Made by a program: the position numbers and the translations under genes
Shown here: positions 2,591-37,336 of the stretch, one piece after another
Numbering within the stretch: the stretch's first letter is position 1
How the letters are laid out: each line of letters opens with the position of its first letter
The notes under the pieces: model-generated
Database searches by the model: none
What the model was told of the DNA's origin: nothing
The model's input: only the letters and a program-made list of their open reading frames with translations
IMG/VR virus record: IMGVR_UViG_3300044453_000072
Strand: one strand, 5' to 3'
Length of the DNA stretch: 44,711 bases
DNA from: a virus

Positions 2591-3373
2591 ATGGCTAAGA
2601 ACAATTCTCCAACCGGGTTCACCGGAACCAAGGCCATGTCTGCGGAAGACCTCAATTCCGCCATGCGCGGCGATATTCAGGCTTCCTATCTGAAAGGCCC
2701 GACACAGACCTCATATCCCGGCCTTGGCCAGCCGATGAAGAACGCCCTAAGCGACGTTTCATCTGCTGGCATGGCCAACAAGGGCTTGCTCAATCAGGCT
2801 TTCGGCTCCAACTGGCAAATGCTCACTTCCGGCGGGCTGACGGGCGATCAGCGCGGCGCAATGGACTACACGCGTGGCGTAATGGAAGGTGGGGCATCCG
2901 ATCCCGCATTTCAGCGCCTCAAGCAGAACGCCATTGACGACACGCGAACCGCAGTCAATCGCCAGTTCGGGGCATCTGGCCGGTTCGGCTCCAGCCTTCA
3001 TGCGCAGGACGTGACGGAAGGCATTGCAAATGCCGCAGCCGGGATGGACTACCAGAACCTACAAAGACAGGACGCGGCGGCTGGCAATCTGTTCGGCATG
3101 GGCCAGACCGGACAGGCAAACATGTTCGGTGCAATCGACCGCGCCCCGGCGGCATGGGAGGGAACCCTGCTCCCCTACCAGCAGAACTTGCAGGGGCAGG
3201 CCGCGCTCGACGCGGATCGCAGGGCGGAGCTTCAATACGACCCGGCCTACGAGCATCTGCTGAAATATCAGGGGCTATTGGGCAACAACGCTGCCGGTCC
3301 GCAGCCCGCAAGACGGCCCGGTTTCCTTGACTACGCCATGCTTGGCGGCGGTCTTTTGAGCGCATTCCTGTAG
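2591..3373 (+). CDS. Virion internal / ejection protein candidate (260 aa)
   Basis: ATG 2591 lies 2 nt after the upstream stop. The protein is Gly/Ala/Gln/Asn-rich. The call rests on its position in the block of large late genes. Confidence 0.5.
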   Translation: MAKNNSPTGFTGTKAMSAEDLNSAMRGDIQASYLKGPTQTSYPGLGQPMKNALSDVSSAGMANKGLLNQAFGSNWQMLTSGGLTGDQRGAMDYTRGVMEGGASDPAFQRLKQNAIDDTRTAVNRQFGASGRFGSSLHAQDVTEGIANAAAGMDYQNLQRQDAAAGNLFGMGQTGQANMFGAIDRAPAAWEGTLLPYQQNLQGQAALDADRRAELQYDPAYEHLLKYQGLLGNNAAGPQPARRPGFLDYAMLGGGLLSAFL

Positions 3374-3385
3374 GGGAGACTGAAC

Positions 3386-4531
3386 ATGGCCGGACTCCTT
3401 TCCTCCATGCTCATGGGGCCTGCACAGCGCCTTGTTGGGCCGAATGCGATGCAGGCTGCCTCTCCTGCCGTTCAGGGCGGATTGCTGGCGCAGTTCAGAC
3501 CGGAAATGGCGCAAAGCCCGTGGTATCAGGCATTCGATAGAAACCGCGATACGCTGGTCAATACGATGCTTGGCGGCGTTGGCGCGGAATCCCCGCTTGA
3601 GCGCATGAGGGGCATGGCGCAGGGTGCCATGGCGGGCCGTGAAAATGCACGCCTACTTGAAGCCGAGCGGGCAAAGCAGCGTGAGGCCCAGCAGCAGATC
3701 AATTACACGCTACAGGCCATGCAGAAGTCGGGCCGCAATGATCTTGTGCAGGCCGTTCAGGGCGGATTGCCGATTGCGGAGGCGTGGAAGACGTTTCTCT
3801 CAAAAGACGTGGTTAAGCCGACAGACGACATGCGCGAATATGAGTTCGCGCGATCGCATGGCTTTGAAGGCTCGTTTCAGGATTGGATGGTCAGCAACCG
3901 CAAGGCTGGGGCGACAAACATCAACATGCCGGGCCAGCCGACAATCGGAACCGTCCCCCAAGGATGGGCCGCGACGCAAGACCCGCAGACCGGCGAATGG
4001 TCCATGGCACCCATCAAGGGCGGGCCGGAAGCGCAGAAGGCAGATGATCAGGCTGCCAGCGCGGAATCCAAGGACGAACAGCGCCGGACATGGAATCTGA
4101 TCGTCAATGACGAAATTGGGCGGGCGCTGAACATAATTGAAGGTGGTGGCTGGTTGCCCACGACTGGCCTTGGTTCCGATCTGGCGGCAGGTGTTGGCGG
4201 CACGGCGGCGCGCGACTTGAAGGGGTTGCTCGATACGGTCAAGGCAAACGCGGGTTTCGACCGCCTTCAGGCCATGCGTGACGCATCCCCGACAGGCGGT
4301 GCGCTCGGTCAGGTTTCGGAGCGTGAATTGGCGTTCCTCCAGTCCACCATCGGCAATCTGGAGCAGTCCCAGAGCAAGGAGCAGATCACCTACAACCTGA
4401 AACGCCTTCAGAAAATCTACCAGAACATGCTCGACGGCAAGCGCGCCTATGACGGTCTTTTGAGTGACAATGGCGCATCGGGCGGATGGCAGGATGCGGG
4501 TGATGGCATCAAGATTCGCAGGCTCGACTAA
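3386..4531 (+). CDS. Virion internal / ejection protein candidate (381 aa)
   Basis: Long ORF with a Gln/Ala-rich coiled segment, tightly packed with its neighbours. Confidence 0.5.
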   Translation: MAGLLSSMLMGPAQRLVGPNAMQAASPAVQGGLLAQFRPEMAQSPWYQAFDRNRDTLVNTMLGGVGAESPLERMRGMAQGAMAGRENARLLEAERAKQREAQQQINYTLQAMQKSGRNDLVQAVQGGLPIAEAWKTFLSKDVVKPTDDMREYEFARSHGFEGSFQDWMVSNRKAGATNINMPGQPTIGTVPQGWAATQDPQTGEWSMAPIKGGPEAQKADDQAASAESKDEQRRTWNLIVNDEIGRALNIIEGGGWLPTTGLGSDLAAGVGGTAARDLKGLLDTVKANAGFDRLQAMRDASPTGGALGQVSERELAFLQSTIGNLEQSQSKEQITYNLKRLQKIYQNMLDGKRAYDGLLSDNGASGGWQDAGDGIKIRRLD

Positions 4532-10263: not shown

Positions 10264-11286
10264 ATGGGTTATGGCGCACCGACGCAAGACGAACTCAATC
10301 GCTTCCGGGAACTATCCAAGACCTTAACACATGCCGATGGCACCCCCAACTACACCCAAATCGCCAAGCAGCTAGGCCGCCCCAGAACAACGGTTCTTGC
10401 ATGGCCCCGGTTCGCGGAAGGAACCAAAACCGAGTTCCCCGAAACCGTTCTCAGCGAAGAAAACGAGCCGATAGACGAAATCCTTGGCCGTCTCCGCAAG
10501 GCTCATACCCGCAAGCAGAAGCAGATAGAGGCCCGTACCTGGTTCCCGATCAAGGTCAAGGAGGACAAGCCCTACGGCATCCTCTGGTTCGGCGATCCTC
10601 ATCTTGGCCAGCACTGCAATTGGGACTTGCTGGACCGTGACATCGCCATAGCGCAGCGCGACGGCGTGTATGGCGGCAACATCGGCGACACGACCGACAA
10701 CTGGCCGTGGACCGGCAGGATGGCTCGCCTGTGGGCTGAGGTGGACGTTTCCTCCCCGACTGAAAAGCGGCTTGCCAACTGGTTCATGTTCGAGACCGGC
10801 ATCAAGTGGATGGTCTGGCTTCTGGGCAACCATGACGAGTGGAACGGCGGCTCCGAATTCTACAAGATGCTCGGGGCGCATCAAATCCCGGTACTCGACT
10901 GGCGCGCTCAATTCCGGCTGGTTCACGCCAAGACGGAAGTGAGAGTGGACGCGTCACACGGGCGCAAGGGTTCTTCCATTTACAACCCAACCCATGGGAC
11001 TTTGCGGGAGGCGAAATTTGGGGAAAATGCTGACGCCTATATTACCGGGCACACGCACAATTTCGGCCTATTTGAGATAGAATTCGCCGAGAAAAAGCAC
11101 AGAACGTGGTTGGCCCAGATTGCCGGTTACAAGGTCGGAGGTCTCTACGAAGCAAAGGGCGGATATGGCCAATCGCAATTCGGGTGCAGCGTCTTCATGA
11201 TCGTGCATCCCGAAACGGGCCGTGTCCAGATGTTCTCGGACGCGGAGGAGGGCGCGGACTATTTGCGCCACCTGCGATCACGATGA
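10264..11286 (+). CDS. HTH-domain / calcineurin-like metallophosphoesterase fusion protein (340 aa)
   Basis: The N-terminal NYTQIAKQLGRPRTTVLAW is HTH-like. Metallophosphoesterase motifs are FGDPHLG, GNIGDTTDN, LGNHDEW and GHTHNF. Confidence 0.75.
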   Translation: MGYGAPTQDELNRFRELSKTLTHADGTPNYTQIAKQLGRPRTTVLAWPRFAEGTKTEFPETVLSEENEPIDEILGRLRKAHTRKQKQIEARTWFPIKVKEDKPYGILWFGDPHLGQHCNWDLLDRDIAIAQRDGVYGGNIGDTTDNWPWTGRMARLWAEVDVSSPTEKRLANWFMFETGIKWMVWLLGNHDEWNGGSEFYKMLGAHQIPVLDWRAQFRLVHAKTEVRVDASHGRKGSSIYNPTHGTLREAKFGENADAYITGHTHNFGLFEIEFAEKKHRTWLAQIAGYKVGGLYEAKGGYGQSQFGCSVFMIVHPETGRVQMFSDAEEGADYLRHLRSR

Positions 11287-11756
11287 GCAATCTTGCCGGG
11301 ATGAGTGAGCTTTTCGACGGGGTAACCGAGCCGGTATCTGCTCTGTATGACGGTAATCGGAACCCCGGCTTCGTCGGCGATTTCGCGCAACGTCTTCTCT
11401 ACGCCATTGACCATCACGCGGATTGTTTTGCGCTGGTTGTTCATCTGCTCGCGCGGTGTGGCCCAGCGGCAATTCTCCGGCGTGTAATCGCCTTCGTTGT
11501 CAACCCGGTCCACCGAATGTCTGGGCGAGGGACGTGGCCCCATGTCCTCATAGAACGCCTCAAAGCTATCACGCCAACGGGCGCACATTCTGATACCGCG
11601 CGCGCCGTACTTCTTGTAGCCGCCGTAGTTCGGATTATGGCACCGATGCTTGATGCCATTCCACGAATTGTATTCGGGGCTCTTGCGCAAGCCGTGCGTC
11701 TTTTGAAAGCCGCGCTCGCCATGCTTCGGCATGTTTACGTGGTTGTCTGTATTCAT
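11259..11756 (-). CDS. HNH-like free-standing homing endonuclease-type protein (165 aa)
   Basis: The signature SPEYNSWNGIKHRC..YGARGIRMC..W..SFEAFYEDMG.RP...SVDRVDNEGDYTPENCRWAT..EQ.NN is typical of phage HNH-annotated proteins (recalled). The 3' end overlaps 10264..11286 by 28 nt, convergently. Confidence 0.6.
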   Translation of the reverse strand: MNTDNHVNMPKHGERGFQKTHGLRKSPEYNSWNGIKHRCHNPNYGGYKKYGARGIRMCARWRDSFEAFYEDMGPRPSPRHSVDRVDNEGDYTPENCRWATPREQMNNQRKTIRVMVNGVEKTLREIADEAGVPITVIQSRYRLGYPVEKLTHPGKIAHRDRRWRK

Positions 11757-12107: not shown

Positions 12108-12164
12108 TTGCAGACACATCCCCTAATTCTGTCCGTAACCATGCCCGCCTCATAAAGATTTGGA

Positions 12165-12193
12165 CTCCGCGATCCACATGATCGCTGACGGAG
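12165..12193. terminator. Hairpin between convergent genes (possible bidirectional terminator)
   Basis: CTCC-GCGATC / loop CACAT / GATCGC-(TGAC)-GGAG. No clear U-tract. Confidence 0.25.
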
Positions 12194-12208
12194 ATGCGCA
12201 ACTGCTCT

Positions 12209-12349
12209 CTACGCGCCATTGAGATAGCCACCCTTGCGCCGCTTGCTCCAAGAACGCTGTTCGCCGCGCTTCACCCGCTTTGGGTGATAGCGTAGCGCGC
12301 TGCTGGCGTAATTATGGTTTCGTTTTCGTTTTGACGGACGAGCGCCCAT
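12209..12349 (-). CDS. Very basic micro-protein (46 aa), hypothetical
   Basis: GGAG lies 7 nt upstream of ATG 12349. The product is MGARPSKRKRNHNYASSALRYHPKRVKRGEQRSWSKRRKGGYLNGA. It is below the ORF-track cutoff. Confidence 0.3.
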   Translation of the reverse strand: MGARPSKRKRNHNYASSALRYHPKRVKRGEQRSWSKRRKGGYLNGA

Positions 12350-12394
12350 CTCTCATCTCCTGAAACATTCGCCTGTTATTATACCCGATAAGCC

Positions 12395-12423
12395 TTGAGA
12401 TTCAAAGGGATTCGGGGTATGTA
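12395..12423 (+). promoter_or_regulatory. Sigma70-like promoter candidate (TTGAGA-N17-TATGTA)
   Basis: -35 is TTGAGA 12395-12400 and -10 is TATGTA 12418-12423, with an exact 17-nt spacer. The predicted start near 12430 coincides with the 5' end of the tRNA-like fold. Confidence 0.4.
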
Positions 12424-12429
12424 GGGGGT

Positions 12430-12580
12430 GAGGCGGCGGCGTGGAAGGACACGCGCCGACACAGCGTGTTTTCCAAACGACGCACGGCGATACCCTTGGT
12501 TTGGAAATAGCGCTTGCAGGCAAAATCCGGGAGAGGGGTATCTTCTCGGAAGCCGGTTTCGAGTCCGGCCCGCCTCCACA
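12430..12580 (+). ncRNA. Candidate structured RNA with tRNA-like acceptor/T-arm end (alternatively an attP core copying the 3' end of a host tRNA-type gene)
   Basis: GAGGCGG 12430-36 pairs with CCGCCTC 12570-76. A T-arm-like GCCGG/CCGGC (12552-56/12565-69) has the loop TTTCGAGT. A D-like stem is 12439-42/12451-54. Two long internal hairpins span 12455-88 and 12489-12542. No credible ORF is present. Confidence 0.3.
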
Positions 12581-12584
12581 GTTT

Positions 12585-12684
12585 CCCCGTGATGAACGGG
12601 GCCGAGACCACTCGGCCACCGAGTATCAGTCGGTGCGTCCATAGGCCCACGATAGGGCACCGAGCGTCAGCGGGATACTGACGC
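12585..12684 (+). other. Run of four consecutive stable hairpins
   Basis: The hairpins are 12585-12601 (6 bp), 12602-12615 (5 bp), 12617-12635 (6 bp, 7-nt loop) and 12664-12684 (7 bp, 7-nt loop). None has a U-tract. Confidence 0.5.
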
Positions 12685-12727
12685 ACACCATTCCCCCGTC
12701 CAACACAGGGCGGGGCAGGAGATAGCG

Positions 12728-14508: not shown

Positions 14509-14519
14509 TTTCCATTCTC

Positions 14520-14530
14520 CGCGTTACACA
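14520..14530 (-). promoter_or_regulatory. Conserved 5'-UTR motif TGTGTAACGCG (copy 1)
   Basis: The minus-strand reading is CCCTGTGTAACGCGGAGAATGGAAAATG, immediately upstream of 14320..14508. Confidence 0.6.
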
Positions 14531-14548
14531 GGGTAGGGGAAGCGGGGG

Positions 14549-14986: not shown

Positions 14987-14996
14987 CGTCTCTCTC

Positions 14997-15007
14997 CGCG
15001 TTACACA
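14997..15007 (-). promoter_or_regulatory. Conserved 5'-UTR motif TGTGTAACGCG (copy 2)
   Basis: The minus-strand reading is GCTTGTGTAACGCGGAGAGAGACGATG, upstream of 14549..14986. Confidence 0.6.
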
Positions 15008-15030
15008 AGCCTGTCGGGGGTGCGGGGCTG

Positions 15031-15414: not shown

Positions 15415-15428
15415 GACCGTCTCCTTCT

Positions 15429-15439
15429 CGCGTTACACA
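15429..15439 (-). promoter_or_regulatory. Conserved 5'-UTR motif TGTGTAACGCG (copy 3)
   Basis: The minus-strand reading is GCTTGTGTAACGCGAGAAGGAGACGGTCATG, upstream of 15031..15414. Confidence 0.6.
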
Positions 15440-15472
15440 AGCTATCGAAATCGAGGCTTGATAAGGGGTGCT

Positions 15473-15590
15473 GTTCCACATAAAAGCCCAATGTTTCTAT
15501 GGCGGTGGAATACCGGGCGAGGCCTCCACATACTTTCTAGCCAATTGATTTCTTTTAGCATTTTTCATCGTGCATAGGAACCGTTCCACA
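15473..15590. promoter_or_regulatory. int-proximal intergenic region with GTTCCACA repeats and an AT-rich tract (candidate attP arm sites or DnaA-box-like sites)
   Basis: CTGTTCCACA at 15471-80 and CCGTTCCACA at 15581-90 are direct copies, and GTGGAA at 15505-10 is inverted. The AT-rich tract is CCAATTGATTTCTTTTAGCATTTTTCAT (15541-68). CCTCCACA at 15523-30 also occurs at 12573-80. Confidence 0.4.
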
Positions 15591-15593
15591 CGG

Positions 15594-16646
15594 CTATCCC
15601 CGCGTTACACTTTGCATTCTGCGCCCGGCAGATTCGGCCAGGCTCCGGCGATTTGCCGATTGTACGTAGGGCCGAGCCTCTTTCGCGTCTTTCCAGCCGA
15701 ACCACGCCGTCAGCTCGTATTCGGTCGCCCCGCCTTCGGCCATCTTGGTAGCGCGCCATTTCCGAACGCTATGTGCCGTGATGCCCTCGACGCCAGCTTG
15801 CCGGAACCACTTGGCGATGCGCTGCGATAGAGCCTTGTCGCTGGCGAAGGCTCTCCCCCAATCATTGGTGAGGAACACCAGCCCGTTCGTCTGCTCGATT
15901 ACGGCCCGCGCCTCCGGCGAGATGGTCAACTCGCACAGGACGCCGGTCTTAACCGTCTTGAAGCACAGAAGCCCGCTACGCACGTGCTGAGGCCCGAGAA
16001 TGCGCAGATCCGATACGCGCATCCCGAAGGCCTTCAGGAGCGTCATAGCGCGCCGTGCGGGGCCGCTGGTGTGGAAAGCCTCATATTGGGCGATATGCTC
16101 GTCAGTGGCAGTCTCATGGCCTTCTGTGGCGGCGTTCAGGCGCTTCACGTCCCGAACCGGGTTGTCGGCCCTCAGATCGTTGTCGAATGCGAAGGCGAAT
16201 ATCTGCGAGAGCACCTTCAGGCGCTCGTTCGCCGCGTGGGGGTTCGTCGCCTTCCGATTGCGCAGAATCGCGATATGCCGCGCCTCGATCTTCTCGAAAC
16301 GCTCCATGCCGAACGTCTCGGGGAAGCGCGGGTCAAGCGGCTCCGCCATCATGGTCAAGATGATCCTGCGCCGCGCCGAGCGTGTCGCTTCGGCCTTTAG
16401 CTTGAAGCCGGGGCTGTCCATGTACCTGTCGGCCAACCATGCGAGCGTGCCTTCGCTATTGATTGCAGCGGGCGCTTGCCAGGTCAAATGACGCTGGTAC
16501 ACTGCCATGAATTCGGGCGTCGTCGGGTCGCTCGGCAGTTCGCCAAGGGGCTGCCCGCGCCGCCGAAAATAGTAGCGGTACGATCCATCCTTGTTCCGCC
16601 GGACGGTGACATGCTTGAGGCGAAGGCGCATGATTGGAGCGTTCAC
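15594..16646 (-). CDS. int: Tyrosine recombinase / phage integrase (350 aa)
   Basis: The catalytic-domain signature is ...GMRVSDL...HSVRKWRAT...RPYVQ (R, H-x-x-R, Y). The N-terminal LRLKHVTVRRNKDGSYRYYFRRRG is typical of proteobacterial phage integrases. Confidence 0.9.
   Translation of the reverse strand: MNAPIMRLRLKHVTVRRNKDGSYRYYFRRRGQPLGELPSDPTTPEFMAVYQRHLTWQAPAAINSEGTLAWLADRYMDSPGFKLKAEATRSARRRIILTMMAEPLDPRFPETFGMERFEKIEARHIAILRNRKATNPHAANERLKVLSQIFAFAFDNDLRADNPVRDVKRLNAATEGHETATDEHIAQYEAFHTSGPARRAMTLLKAFGMRVSDLRILGPQHVRSGLLCFKTVKTGVLCELTISPEARAVIEQTNGLVFLTNDWGRAFASDKALSQRIAKWFRQAGVEGITAHSVRKWRATKMAEGGATEYELTAWFGWKDAKEARPYVQSANRRSLAESAGRRMQSVTRG
15601..15610 (-). promoter_or_regulatory. 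Partial fourth copy of the motif (GTGTAACGCG) inside the 3' end of int
   Basis: The minus-strand reading is AAAGTGTAACGCGGGGATAG, which spans the integrase stop codon. Confidence 0.4.
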
Positions 16647-22668: not shown

Positions 22669-23550
22669 TCAGGCGGCAGGAACCAGTTTCCCGTCACGCG
22701 CGATGTACGGTGTATTCGGGAGCAGCCCGTCCTTGCCGATGCAGCCGGTAGCGAAACCGACGCACTTGCCGTCCTTGAACTCGGCTACGGAAATCCAAGT
22801 GCCATCGGCACCGGAAACGGACGTGCCGGGACCGGCAGAGGCCACGACGCTGTGGGCACCTTCAGCTACGATCTGCGCGTAGTTGCCGCTGGAACCGATC
22901 CGCGCGGAGTCGCCGCTGGAACCGATCCGCGCGTAGTTGCCGCTGGAACCGATCTGCGCGTAGTTGCCGCTGGAACCGATCCGCGCGGAGTCGCCGCTGG
23001 AACCGATCCGCGCGTAGTTGCCGCTGGAACCGATCTGCGCGGAGTCGCCGCTGGAACCGATCCGCGCGGAGTCGCCGCTGGAACCGATCCGCGCGTAGTT
23101 GCCGCTGGAACCGATCTGCGCGTAGTTGCCGCTGGAACCGATCCGCGCGTAGTCGCCGCTGGGGTCATCGCCCTTGCCCTTCGTGGCGTCGATCACCCAC
23201 GACACGGCGCGGCGGATAAAATCCGGTAGGCTGATTTCGGCGTCTATGGTAATCTTGGCGGCGCAAATCTTGCTGTCTTTCTGGCCGCTGTCGCGAACGA
23301 AACCAGCCATCGAAACATCGGCGTAGCGCGCCAGCTTGCCCTCGGCATCAACCGGCCCGTAATAGCCCCACACGTCGAAGGGCGAACCCTCGCAGGCATG
23401 GAAGCCGGACGAGCACATGACGACACCGCCCTGGTGCTCGTAGCTCTTGCCGACTTCGTACTGAAAGCCTCGGCATTTCAGGTCGGCGTCAAAGCCCTTG
23501 ATGGCCTTCACGGTTTCAGGCTGCTTCGATTTCGCGGGCTTCTTCGCCAT
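22669..23550 (-). CDS. Tandem nonapeptide-repeat protein (293 aa): conserved Cys/His N-domain plus about 11 x SG(N/D)(Y/S)A(R/Q)IGS
   Basis: The N-terminal KGFDADLKCRGFQYEVGKSYEH...CSSGFHACEGSPFDVWGYYGP is a widespread phage domain (recalled). The central repeats are encoded by the 27-bp tandem array. Confidence 0.8.
   Translation of the reverse strand: MAKKPAKSKQPETVKAIKGFDADLKCRGFQYEVGKSYEHQGGVVMCSSGFHACEGSPFDVWGYYGPVDAEGKLARYADVSMAGFVRDSGQKDSKICAAKITIDAEISLPDFIRRAVSWVIDATKGKGDDPSGDYARIGSSGNYAQIGSSGNYARIGSSGDSARIGSSGDSAQIGSSGNYARIGSSGDSARIGSSGNYAQIGSSGNYARIGSSGDSARIGSSGNYAQIVAEGAHSVVASAGPGTSVSGADGTWISVAEFKDGKCVGFATGCIGKDGLLPNTPYIARDGKLVPAA
22870..23162. repeat. 27-bp tandem repeat, about 10.7 copies, with an 81-bp higher-order period
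   Basis: The + strand unit is GCGCG(T/G)AGT(T/C)GCCGCTGGAACCGATC(C/T), and unit boundaries fall every 27 nt from 22875. The variant order is A B A' / A B A' / B B A' / A ... Confidence 0.95.
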
Positions 23551-25539: not shown

Positions 25540-25736
25540 CCTCCCCCTCCAAGCAAGATGCGAAGCTGCTGCCGTGCCCGTTTTGTGGGCGTGATGCCGC
25601 CAATCTCGCCGTTGGCAGTGGCTGCGAATATGTCGTGTGCGGCTGCGGAGCAGAGGGGCCAGCACGTCCAAGTGAAGCCGAAGCTATCGCCGTCTGGAAC
25701 CGCCGTTTCCCCACCCCTCCAGTAGAGGGAGCCTAG
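25536..25736 (+). CDS. lar: Lar-family restriction-alleviation protein (66 aa)
   Basis: The start overlaps the cro stop as ATGA. The family signature is LLPCPFCG...VVCGCGAEGP...EAIAVWNRR. Confidence 0.7.
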   Translation: MTSPSKQDAKLLPCPFCGRDAANLAVGSGCEYVVCGCGAEGPARPSEAEAIAVWNRRFPTPPVEGA

Positions 25737-35328: not shown

Positions 35329-37336
35329 GGATAACGACGCGCTCATCAAGCGGGCGCGCGATGTTTTCTCCCGATGCAAGGATGCAGGCGACCACAACCG
35401 CCAGACCGCCATTGACGACATTCGCTTTGCCCGTCTCGGCGAGCAGTGGCCCAGCGATATCGTTGAGCAGCGCAAGCGGGAATCGAGGCCGCACCTCACC
35501 ATCAACAGGCTTCCGGCATTTATCCGCCAGGTGGTTAACGATGCGCGCCAGAACAAGCCAGGCATCAAGGTTCGCCCTGCGGATAGCAACGCAGACAAGG
35601 ACACGGCAGAGGTCATCAATGGCCTGATCCGCAACATCGAATACACGTCCGACGCCGATGTGGCTTACGACACGGGTGTTGAATGTGCGGTAACTGGTGG
35701 TTTCGGGTACTGGCGCATCGATCTCGACTACGCGCATAGCGACAGTTTCGATCTGGATATCCGCATAGCGCGCATTTCCAATCCGCTGAGCGTTTACGAA
35801 GACCCGAATGCGACGGCCGCCGATTCATCGGACTGGAACGACTGCTTTGTCACCGATGTCCTGAGCGAGGAGCAGTTCAAGGCCAAGTATCCCAAGGCCG
35901 ACAATCGTCATTGGGACGATACCGACGCATGGGGCGATGCGCCTGACTGGCATGACAACGGCATTGTTGTTGCGGAGTGGTGGAGCCGCGAGGAGGTCGA
36001 GGAGGAAATTGTCCAGCTTCAGGACGGCTCGGTCTATTCGGCTAAGCAGCTTCAGGAAGACGAAGACCTTCTGCTGGTTCGCATCCAGATCGAGAACTTC
36101 CCCGACACGGTGAAGGCCCGCAAGACCAAGAAAGCCTACAAGGTCACGCAGCGCATCATGACCGGGCTTGAGGTGCTGGAAACGAACGAATGGCCGGGGC
36201 AGTACATCCCGATCATCCCGGTTTACGGCGATGAGATTGTCGTCAACGGCAAGCGCTATTTCCGCTCGCTGATCCATGACGCCATCGATCCGCAGCGCAT
36301 GTTCAATTACTGGCGCACTACGTCCACGGAACTGGTGGCGCTTGCTCCTCGTGTGCCGTTTATCGGGCCTGAGGGCGCATTCGATGTCGATCCGGAGAAA
36401 TGGGCGTCGATCAACACACGGTCCCATGCGTTTGTCGAATATTCCAAGAATGCGGTAGCCGCGCCCCAGCGGCAGCCGCTCGATGCCGGCCCGGCAGCAG
36501 GCGCGATGCAGGAAGCATTGCTTGCCTCGGATGACATGAAGGGCGTCATGGGGCTGCACGACGCATCCCTTGGGGCAAAATCGAACGAAACCAGCGGCAG
36601 GGCGATCATGGCCCGCCAGCGGGAAGGGGACGTTTCCACATTCCACTTCCAGGACAATGAAAGCCGCGCCATCAGGCACACCGGCAGGGTCATCCTGGAC
36701 CTGTTGCCGCATGTCTACAACAAGGCCCGCGTGGTCAGGGTTCTTGGCGAGGACGGCAAGGAGCGTCCCGTCCAGATCGGCCAGGAATATCAGAAGCAAG
36801 ACCCGAAAACGGGTGAATTGCTGTTTGAACAGGATGCGAACGGCATCGACCAGCCTGTCATGGCGATGCACGATTTGACCGTGGGCAAGTACGACCTGAC
36901 CGTCACAACTGGCCCGAGCTTCACGACACGGCGCGAGGAAGCCGCTTTCCAGATGACGGAAATGATCCGTGCGCTACCTGCCTCCGCACCGATCCTTGGC
37001 AAGCATCTGGCCCGCAATCTGGATTGGCCGGGTGCCGACGAGATCGCGGAGGAACTGGAAGCCCTTGTGCCCAAGCCGGACGTGATACCGCGCGATGAGG
37101 CCATGCAGATTGCGCAGCAATTCCAGCAGCGCATTGCCGAGCTTGAACAGGAAAACCGCGACCTGAAGACAAATGCCGGCGTGGATATGCAGCGGCTCGG
37201 CGAGGAACAGCGCGCCAACATGGCGGATGAGGCCACGGATCGTTTCAACGCCATCACCGATCGGATGAAGGTCGGCGTAAGCGCCAGACAGGCAGAACAG
37301 CGGGCATCGCAGCCCCGACAGAATCCGCAGCGCTGA
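35297..37336 (+). CDS. Portal protein (679 aa; alternative ATG at 35255)
   Basis: Its position and size fit. The N-terminal ...DDIRFARLGEQWPSDIVEQRKRESRPHLTINRLPAFIRQVVNDARQNKPGIKVRP is typical of P22-type portals (recalled). Confidence 0.85.
   Translation: MYDKQSNDTAKDNDALIKRARDVFSRCKDAGDHNRQTAIDDIRFARLGEQWPSDIVEQRKRESRPHLTINRLPAFIRQVVNDARQNKPGIKVRPADSNADKDTAEVINGLIRNIEYTSDADVAYDTGVECAVTGGFGYWRIDLDYAHSDSFDLDIRIARISNPLSVYEDPNATAADSSDWNDCFVTDVLSEEQFKAKYPKADNRHWDDTDAWGDAPDWHDNGIVVAEWWSREEVEEEIVQLQDGSVYSAKQLQEDEDLLLVRIQIENFPDTVKARKTKKAYKVTQRIMTGLEVLETNEWPGQYIPIIPVYGDEIVVNGKRYFRSLIHDAIDPQRMFNYWRTTSTELVALAPRVPFIGPEGAFDVDPEKWASINTRSHAFVEYSKNAVAAPQRQPLDAGPAAGAMQEALLASDDMKGVMGLHDASLGAKSNETSGRAIMARQREGDVSTFHFQDNESRAIRHTGRVILDLLPHVYNKARVVRVLGEDGKERPVQIGQEYQKQDPKTGELLFEQDANGIDQPVMAMHDLTVGKYDLTVTTGPSFTTRREEAAFQMTEMIRALPASAPILGKHLARNLDWPGADEIAEELEALVPKPDVIPRDEAMQIAQQFQQRIAELEQENRDLKTNAGVDMQRLGEEQRANMADEATDRFNAITDRMKVGVSARQAEQRASQPRQNPQR

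Follow-up and report, generated by a model that had tools for sequence, protein, structure and literature searches.

A probable tRNA-mimic non-coding RNA with a lineage-specific insert in a P22-like temperate phage and a wide range of other phages and prophages

What does a tightly packed phage genome encode where it appears to leave several hundred nucleotides (nt) without a protein gene? The question is raised by positions 12430–12576 of the IMG/VR virus record IMGVR_UViG_3300044453_000072, a stretch of 44,711 nt that is referred to here, at its full length, as the window. An earlier note on this DNA had offered two readings of the locus, namely (a) an expressed RNA resembling a transfer RNA (tRNA) or the tRNA-like domain of transfer-messenger RNA (tmRNA), and (b) a phage copy of the end (3') of some tRNA-type gene of the host, which would make it the core of a phage attachment site (attP). 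The evidence assembled below favors a form of the first reading: the plus strand of 12430–12576 is probably the gene for an autonomous non-coding RNA that mimics tRNA, is about 147 nt long, bears a lineage-specific cargo and belongs to a family widespread among phages and prophages.

The element, all of it on the plus strand, is laid out as a closing helix, a junction, a first hairpin, an insert and a second hairpin. The 5' strand of the acceptor-like closing helix, GAGGCGG (12430–12436), pairs with CCGCCUC (12570–12576); this pairing had been proposed earlier, and both the letters and the fold bear it out. A junction dinucleotide, CG (12437–12438), stands at the place of tRNA nucleotides 8–9 and leads into hairpin 1 (12439–12454), a D-arm-like structure of stem GCGUG/CACGC and loop GAAGGA, so that the D-like stem is a 5-base-pair (bp) hairpin, GCGUG-GAAGGA-CACGC, and not the 4-bp stem that was first described. 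The variable insert, or cargo, is 97 nt long (12455–12551), is predicted to fold into a long irregular hairpin (12455–12521) and a second hairpin (12526–12550), and closes with A12551, which is invariant in the family. Hairpin 2 (12552–12569) is T-arm-like, with stem GCCGG/CCGGC and an 8-nt loop UUUCGAGU (TTTCGAGT in DNA letters); as the earlier note had it, this hairpin abuts the 3' strand of the closing helix, after which comes C-ACA. Because hairpin 2 abuts that strand, the two helices can stack coaxially in the fashion of a tRNA.

Folded without constraint, 12430–12576 reaches −70.3 kcal/mol (z = −3.9), a value that none of 200 shuffles equals, and the scaffold is recovered. The wider segment 12425–12700 gives z = −4.3 on the plus strand versus −2.9 on the minus strand, and a structural scanner finds the full scaffold pattern once in the window and in none of 300 shuffled windows. 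The family was defined on its 5' side by a closing helix of at least 7 bp, a C-R junction and a 5-bp hairpin with loop GAWGGA, and on its 3' side by an insert with a terminal A and a 5-bp hairpin with a UCRA-containing loop that abuts the 3' strand; the window copy has every one of these features.

Among the 13 viral contigs that carry relatives of a neighboring phosphoesterase gene, one (L006) has a homologous element, in which hairpin 1 is identical and the closing helix, GUUGUCGG/CCGACAAC, differs from the GAGGCGG/CCGCCUC of the window by compensatory changes. The 18-mer CGGCGTGGAAGGACACGC, spanning the junction and hairpin 1, is found in at least 120 IMG/VR contigs among the matches listed, and 108 of its 123 listed occurrences are followed 41–190 nt downstream by a 5-bp hairpin and then directly by a complementary closing strand. 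Since a set gathered in this way fixes hairpin 1 by construction, a second scan was made with the commonest hairpin 2 sequence. In copies ascertained by hairpin 2 alone the stem of hairpin 1 covaries (GCGCU/AGCGC, GCACG/CGUGC, ACUCG/CGAGU, AUGCG/CGCAU, ACCGC/GCGGU and others) and its loop stays GAWGGA. A motif-light structural scanner yielded 188 distinct copies from IMG/VR contigs, metagenome-assembled genomes (MAGs), isolate genomes and cultured phages; such a scanner took the place of a single covariance model, for which the variable insert is awkward. Because recruitment went through two exact motifs and a strict structural scanner, divergent members are under-sampled and the counts are lower bounds.

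Covariation across related phages, which had been suggested earlier as a check, extends to the acceptor-like helix and to both the D-like and the T-like hairpin. In 138 aligned scaffolds all 17 scaffold pairs show double changes (476 cells, versus 106 ± 8 in shuffles), and the covariation score is 0.585, versus 0.05–0.11 in slid registers. All seven pairs of the closing helix covary, with 2 to 93 double changes per pair; this helix has a core of 7 bp, with position 7 paired in 96 per cent of copies, position 8 in 83 per cent and position 9 in 67 per cent, and pairing past position 9 is near chance. The stem of hairpin 2 covaries likewise (GCAGG/CCUGC, GCUGG/CCAGC, GCGGG/CCCGC, GUAAG/CUUAC, GCACA/UGUGC). 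Its loop has the consensus NNUCRANN and is most often UAUCAAGC, the form UUUCGAGU of the window being found in 4 of the 188 copies, and an A directly precedes the hairpin in 185 of 186. The junction is CG in 178 of the 188 copies and CA in nine, and its second base varies together with pair 3 of hairpin 1 (Fisher p = 1.4e-6); this would fit a tRNA-like 9–(12–23) triple but is suggestive only, as shared ancestry could also give it.

G–U pairs occur on this strand, which marks the plus strand as the functional one, and the same pattern bears on whether the locus is instead a site in DNA. As a recombination or attachment site, the segment would be an attP core, or something like it, derived from the 3' part of a tRNA-type gene in the host. 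Integration often targets tRNA-like genes, the element sits in an accessory region past the 3' end of the leftward operon that contains the integrase gene (int), and one copy in Caulobacter phage DMCA is separated from the 3' end of int by 306 nt. Compensatory helix variation combined with G–U pairs on one strand only, however, is what an RNA would show and a duplex DNA site would not. Free, non-integrated phage genomes and tRNA arrays contain the structure with both halves intact, and copies also stand in tandem or within the tRNA arrays of large phages; the sequence of the closing helix differs freely among phages; and an integrase is rarely near, lying within 1 kilobase (kb) of the element at 3 and within 3 kb at 10 of 184 loci, the int of the window itself (15594–16646) being 3 kb away. 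The loop TTTCGAGT is not what is left of a tRNA but a minority variant of the family, IMG/VR has no instance of the exact 23-mer GGTTTCGAGTCCGGCCCGCCTCC, and the AT-rich non-coding gap of 180 bp that follows the stop codon of int (15415–15593) is at least as good a candidate for attP. An attachment site is accordingly very improbable here: the two-sided structure, the variable helices and the rarity of integrase linkage lend reading (b) no support, and none of the observations requires it.

If the locus specifies an RNA, how closely does that RNA resemble a tRNA? When a generic anticodon arm plus a 5-nt variable loop takes the place of the insert, 52 of 62 such chimeras pass as tRNA in ARAGORN, and acceptance falls to 15 of 61 once the loop of hairpin 2 is scrambled. 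The geometry is that of tRNA in that a 7-bp core helix abuts a 5-bp stem, with GG and UCRA invariant. In tRNA the elbow between the D-loop and the T-loop is formed by bases corresponding to these invariant GG and UC-R-A positions, and it may be inferred that the GG in the loop of hairpin 1 (12447–12448) and the UC in that of hairpin 2 (12559–12560) make a tRNA-like elbow and an L-shaped fold. In geometry the scaffold corresponds to the upper half of a tRNA, with its acceptor, D and T arms. As far as sequence can speak, then, reading (a) is supported by the covarying scaffold, the acceptance of chimeras and the G–U pairs on this strand.

The window copy and 63 of 104 copies have an insert of two hairpins, and such copies have five helices round one junction, which is the topology of a class II tRNA without the anticodon arm. 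The 7-bp acceptor stem and 5-bp T stem, the GG of the D-like loop, the UCRA of the T-like loop and the acceptance of insert-replaced chimeras are further points of likeness to class II tRNAs, whereas the missing anticodon stem-loop, the 8-nt T-like loop and the lack of a match to RF00005 set the element apart. Only two of the 188 copies have a canonical anticodon stem-loop (5 bp/7 nt) after hairpin 1. It might be expected from a scaffold that passes as tRNA once its insert is replaced, and from the copies within tRNA arrays, that the element is a true tRNA gene that has decayed or been interrupted by an intron. Yet ARAGORN in intron mode calls only two of 188 copies, both of them sequences nested within the insert; the inserts, at 41–190 nt, are shorter than group I introns; and GAWGGA and NNUCRANN are kept across phyla as family-specific variants, which argues against decay. 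A decayed or interrupted tRNA gene is thus hardly credible.

The ARAGORN and Rfam checks that the earlier note had proposed were run, and no tRNA, tmRNA or other family was recognized on the element. ARAGORN reports no tRNA or tmRNA gene anywhere in the window, and Rfam 15 gives nothing there at the gathering score and nothing relevant at E-values up to 10. For 26 other loci searched against Rfam (gathering score and an E-value threshold), the only matches are neighboring true tRNAs. BLAST of the region, or of its 10-kb context, against INPHARED found no match to annotated phages, and short-query BLAST returned mostly chance matches in tape-measure genes and one Salmonella match inside a coding region. 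A literature search that included the invariant motif as text turned up no description of such an RNA, although a 2023 catalogue of 10,006 structured-RNA candidates from IMG/VR may contain the family (PMC10690425). The family is absent from Rfam 15, and may perhaps be present without a name in existing catalogues.

Full-structure copies are found in Alpha-, Beta- and Gammaproteobacteria, Acidobacteriota, Planctomycetota, Verrucomicrobiota, Chloroflexota and a Peribacteria MAG of the candidate phyla radiation (CPR), and Elusimicrobiota have a loop variant of the element; these host assignments rest on record titles, and part of the genomic copies were placed in prophages. Among cultured phages, Caulobacter phage DMCA (PQ480021, at about 25,550–25,690) carries a copy in unannotated DNA, as does Acidovorax phage AP1, and the motif of hairpin 1 alone was matched in unannotated DNA of Pseudanabaena phage Pan3 and Desulfovibrio phage 7757. 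Many of the raw genomic matches to the 18-mer arise by chance in coding sequence, among them those in an ABC-transporter ATPase gene (encoding ...TAWKDT...) and in several actinobacterial coding regions (L176, L188, L189), and these were discarded; motif-only matches therefore overstate the taxonomic range.

The element keeps company with tRNA genes. Within 300 nt of a tRNA or tmRNA gene lie 18 of the 33 copies in tRNA-bearing loci, where random placement would give 13 per cent, and all 18 are on the same strand as that gene. Several copies are 5–9 nt from the neighboring tRNA, a spacing like that within arrays, and in two loci (L036, at 991–1150, and L127) the element is inside an array of 19–20 tRNAs. 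L125, L123, L071 and L044 each hold tandem copies whose inserts differ. No protein family appears as a conserved partner: clustering of flanking open reading frames (ORFs) found no neighbor family in more than 7 of about 240 loci, with modest recurrences of packaging and late genes, HNH endonucleases and a NusG-like protein. The element is thus an autonomous unit with no conserved protein neighbor, one that clusters with tRNA genes of the same strand. In one further locus (L131, 1790–1990, minus strand) a complete tRNA-Gly(GCC) is nested in the insert, where the second of its hairpins would otherwise stand; excision of the nested tRNA would leave the outer RNA in two pieces.

Proximity to tmRNA genes invites comparison with tmRNA (SsrA), including its phage-encoded and two-piece forms. 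There, too, an acceptor-like helix is set on a T-like arm, the ends pair into a tRNA top half, a large structured insert replaces the anticodon arm, and the genes occur in phage tRNA arrays. Two copies adjoin phage tmRNA genes: in L081 a permuted two-piece tmRNA (3432–3751, plus strand, tag ANDEVYDNRLAA) is just upstream of the element (3766–3900, plus strand), and in L127 a one-piece tmRNA shares the 20-tRNA array with another copy. A ribosome-rescue RNA with a tRNA-like domain and an internal message should nevertheless show more than this general plan. The G3–U70 pair is present in 1 of 188 copies and no CCA is encoded; frames that resemble a tag and end in Ala-Ala-stop occur in three inserts, versus 2.7 ± 1.5 in shuffles; and, unlike tmRNA, the element has a T-like loop of 8 nt and, on the D side, a true hairpin of 5 bp. 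ARAGORN, which finds the true tmRNAs beside the copies in L081 and L127, misses the element, as do the Rfam tmRNA models, and phages with the element can also have a true tmRNA. A role as a tmRNA is, on these grounds, exceedingly unlikely.

Bacterial Y RNAs are likewise non-coding RNAs with a tRNA-mimicking domain, and some are phage-encoded (Chen et al. 2014, PMC4201824). An RNA of this kind (YrlA/Yrn1 type) would tether Ro60/Rsr, and the arms of Yrn1 of D. radiodurans do stand in tRNA order (PMC4201824). YrlA RNAs are recognized by tRNA-modifying enzymes, and that of M. smegmatis is cut by RNase P (PMC4201824). In YrlA, however, the arm order is T, acceptor stem-loop, D, a GNCGAAN0–1G motif lies near the 5' end, and the gene is tightly linked to that of Ro60 (within about 4 kb, same strand) (PMC4201824). 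The element begins with a variable helix strand, CG and hairpin 1, with no GNCGAAN0–1G near its 5' end, and its arms run D then T. No TROVE/Ro60 protein was found among the window ORFs scanned or recurring beside the copies, and permissive Rfam searches of the window and eight short loci gave no match to a Y RNA family. There is little reason, then, to regard the element as a Y RNA, and the probability that it is one is minimal.

A promoter-like site lies at 12394–12423 on the plus strand, as judged by sequence match. In the form TTGAGA (12395–12400)-N17-TATGTA (12418–12423), which the earlier note had read as sigma70-like, it is indeed present, but it is weak when set against the E. coli consensus and is not listed by a promoter scan. 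The site may alternatively be read as CTTGAG-N17-GTATGT (12394–12422), which matches the alphaproteobacterial consensus CTTGAC-N17-CTATAT (PMC2873474) at 9 of 12 positions. Sites at the same distance occur in L004 (ATTGAG-N17-CTATAT), L006 (ATTGAG-N17-CTAGAT) and Caulobacter phage DMCA (ATTCAC-N17-CTATAA), the −10 element ending 7–8 nt before the helix in these three and in the window. Across the family a promoter-like site at this fixed distance precedes 9 of 175 copies, compared with about 1 per cent at control positions, an enrichment of about fivefold. Transcription in the window is predicted to start at or near G12430, with which the closing helix begins. The small number of copies with a promoter implies that some are stand-alone genes and that most would have to be excised from longer transcripts.

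Four further hairpins downstream (12585–12686, plus strand) had been noted earlier at 12585–12684. They do fold, but they cannot be aligned to the relatives L004 or L006, have no counterpart there and lie outside the conserved element, so that they are lineage-specific. No U-tract follows any of the four, and no terminator-like site was called there; they may act in 3'-end formation or termination.

The main rival is a purely cis-acting processing or stability signal. By this account the element is a form of 'tRNA punctuation' like the t-elements of plant mitochondria, that is, an RNase P/Z signal that sets neighboring mRNAs apart or stabilizes them and has no function in trans. Most copies have no promoter of their own, copies sit in tRNA arrays, and many precede by 10–40 nt a ribosome-binding site and start codon of their own strand; among co-oriented downstream genes 26 of 82 begin no more than 50 nt from the element, and among upstream genes 33 of 91 end no more than 50 nt before it. 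A co-oriented downstream gene is nevertheless present at only about half of the copies, and the orientation of flanking genes is near random (43/48/39/34), which argues against a dedicated leader. The RNA of the window faces a convergent operon and has a single downstream ORF of 45 amino acids (aa), and several copies are promoter–RNA–hairpin units. A bare processing signal, moreover, would need neither a structurally selected insert of at least 41 nt nor loops that are near-invariant across phyla. We therefore consider a signal acting only in cis unlikely, though of more weight than the other alternatives.

The insert is where an RNA acting in trans would be expected to carry its specificity. 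Family inserts are 41–190 nt long, none being shorter than 41 nt, and mostly form two hairpins. They share no sequence motif across the family and match no Rfam family, and sequence searches with them return only other copies of the element. In an Acidobacteriota sub-family (L144, L179, L214, L239), 12 of 54 predicted pairs show compensatory changes, and most of these are in the insert.

Two pairs of copies with near-identical flanks provide the evidence on how inserts are exchanged. L272 and L318 are 95–100 per cent identical over more than 100 nt on both flanks and have identical scaffolds, and yet their inserts (70 and 51 nt) are unrelated; homology ends at the first base after hairpin 1 and restarts just before hairpin 2. 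In the second pair (L051 and L208) the swapped block comprises the insert and hairpin 2. The insert has thus been replaced in the manner of a cassette between near-identical phages, with breakpoints at scaffold boundaries. Given their minimum length, compensatory changes and cassette-like replacement, the inserts are not neutral spacers, and replacement of this kind is the signature of a fast-evolving specificity determinant. A separate observation concerns the insert of the window, in which 12503–12517 is exactly complementary over 15 nt (GGAAATAGCGCTTGC/GCAAGCGCTATTTCC) to the sense strand at 36249–36263, within the P22-type portal gene; roughly 0.004 such matches would be expected, but the segment is in a predicted stem, the match does not extend further, and such complementarity is not enriched family-wide.

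These properties may be drawn together into a model of an autonomous tRNA-mimic RNA. Host tRNA-maturation enzymes would recognize the L-shaped top half; where a copy is embedded in an operon or array, RNase P would cut at its 5' end, and trimming of the 3' end would fall to RNase Z or exonucleases, possibly followed by addition of CCA. In the window phage transcription would begin at the helix from the RNA's own promoter, and with such a start no 5' processing is needed. The tRNA-like chassis would thereby give the RNA defined ends and high stability, and the RNA would act in trans, its fast-evolving insert being the lineage-specific working part. Loops and most stem bases that are near-invariant across distant hosts imply a universally conserved partner, and this partner is most plausibly the tRNA-maturation machinery.

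Several observations weigh against this model and should be set beside it. A recognizable promoter at the helix start is found at about 5 per cent of copies, and most of the others would have to rely on processing. Native copies, in the window and the loci examined, are detected neither by the Rfam tRNA model nor by ARAGORN; the T-like loop has 8 nt rather than 7, with position 54 usually A; the D-like stem has 5 bp; and in one sub-family the closing helix is 13–20 bp, which exceeds the length of an acceptor stem. No CCA is encoded after the closing helix, either in the window (C-ACA) or at any fixed offset in the family. The complementarity of inserts to nearby phage sequence (9.55 nt, versus 9.35 nt in shuffles) is not enriched, and the gene maps around the copies are crude maps of longest ORFs. 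Finally, pairing was a requirement of the scanner, which makes the 100 per cent pairing in the covariation table circular; no such circularity attaches to the variety of pair types or to the two ascertainments by single motifs.

A broader scheme can be put forward tentatively, and with more doubt than confidence: phages of at least seven phyla may share a natural tRNA-scaffold display system, with a host-processed chassis, hairpins that serve as homology arms and effector cargos that co-infecting phages can exchange. That the conserved hairpins provide short homology arms for cargo exchange is speculative. If the scheme holds, each lineage would have in its cargo an effector of its own, such as a decoy, sponge or aptamer, for conflicts between phage and host or between phages, and the element would be a modular RNA counterpart of the accessory-gene cassettes that encode proteins. 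In an engineered 'tRNA scaffold', reportedly described by Ponchon and Dardel in 2007, a cargo RNA replaces the anticodon arm for recombinant RNA expression. The likeness is that a tRNA chassis bears cargo in place of its anticodon arm and that the cell processes and stabilizes the RNA; the engineered scaffold is a laboratory design, whereas the element would be its natural, widespread and evolving counterpart, and its processing and stabilization are proposed from its form. Should the RNA prove stable and processed in this way, it would be a precedent from nature for expressing RNA on tRNA scaffolds, and would open a new way to phage effectors made of RNA. Phage genomes hold much intergenic DNA that is unannotated, the known classes of phage non-coding RNA are few, and here is a family with strong covariation support whose presence in the cultured phages DMCA and AP1 makes it directly testable.

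Other small phage RNAs were also considered as identities for the element. A retron msr-msd RNA was rejected, as no neighbor is conserved and no reverse transcriptase is present among the window ORFs scanned, the loci not having been searched specifically for one. A TnpB/IscB guide RNA was likewise set aside, given that the sole adjacent transposase (in phage DMCA) is an ISL3 DDE enzyme and that no Rfam HEARO or omega-RNA family is matched. The P1 c4 and P4 CI antisense RNAs, which act in immunity, are small, are cut by RNase P from longer transcripts and have phage-specific variable loops, features in which the element may resemble them; an antisense regulator in their style was rejected because complementarity is not enriched and Rfam C4, c4-2 and c4-a1b1 are not matched. 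Species 1 and 2 of T4 (rnaC and rnaD) are alike in concept only, being small stable RNAs within a phage tRNA cluster. Of these, rnaC ends in a T-arm-like hairpin, and both are annotated as stable RNAs with no function stated; neither has a GAWGGA hairpin, a comparable closing helix or a detectable sequence relationship to the element, and homology was rejected.

The window itself is a P22-like temperate phage, with a P22-type portal and coat, TerL, an ERF recombinase and a tyrosine integrase. It is found at 100 per cent identity in six other assemblies (L353–L358), which are identical free contigs, and no integrated copy was recovered. The element lies in an accessory region, with the tail/lysis end of the late genes on one side and the far end of the leftward operon on the other, where it is divergent from a small basic ORF and beside an HNH endonuclease gene.

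That small ORF (12209–12349, minus strand) encodes an extremely basic protein of 46 aa (MGARPSKRKRNHNY...), with homologs P0002 and P0003 at 83 and 79 per cent identity. It has a sigma-70-like promoter (TTGAAT-16-TATAAT at 12405–12378, minus strand, matching at 10 of 12 positions) and an AGGAGA Shine–Dalgarno sequence 7 nt ahead of its ATG. The homologs are in unrelated contexts and no element adjoins either of them; the ORF is probably a real small protein that is a divergent neighbor of the RNA and not its partner. The earlier statement that 12108–12727 lacks a credible ORF thus holds for 12350–12727, which is non-coding, but not for the part that contains this conserved gene. Some public assemblies also have a 94-aa ORF called antisense over the RNA (window 12402–12686, minus strand; L354 1921–2205; L358 612–896). 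In view of the covariation this call is almost certainly spurious, and since gene callers sometimes place such an ORF over the RNA, annotation pipelines would gain from a model of the family.

The HNH endonuclease gene (11259–11756, minus strand; phrog_3377, E = 3e-53) is of a kind that is modestly recurrent near other copies, and it converges on the calcineurin-like phosphoesterase gene (10264–11286, plus strand) with a 28-nt overlap at the 3' end. Farther along, the gap at 15415–15593 contains two exact GTTCCACA words (15473 and 15583) and a similar GCCTCCACA, and is a candidate attP with arm-type sites. The word CYCCGCGTTACAC (about 13–20 nt) occurs four times (14513–14534, 14990–15011, 15422–15443 and 15594–15615) at gene boundaries of the minus-strand operon around int, and may be a regulatory or terminator-associated repeat. 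A 293-aa protein with DUF7666 is encoded in the early leftward operon (22669–23550, minus strand) and has a sub-threshold match to a collagen-like triple-helix repeat (24.6 bits versus a cut-off of 27.2). Outside the window, a 176-kb viral contig (L040) carries two adjacent tRNAs with CUA anticodons (2641–2796, minus strand), which ARAGORN labels tRNA-Pyl; they are of amber-suppressor type and hint at stop-codon reassignment in that phage.

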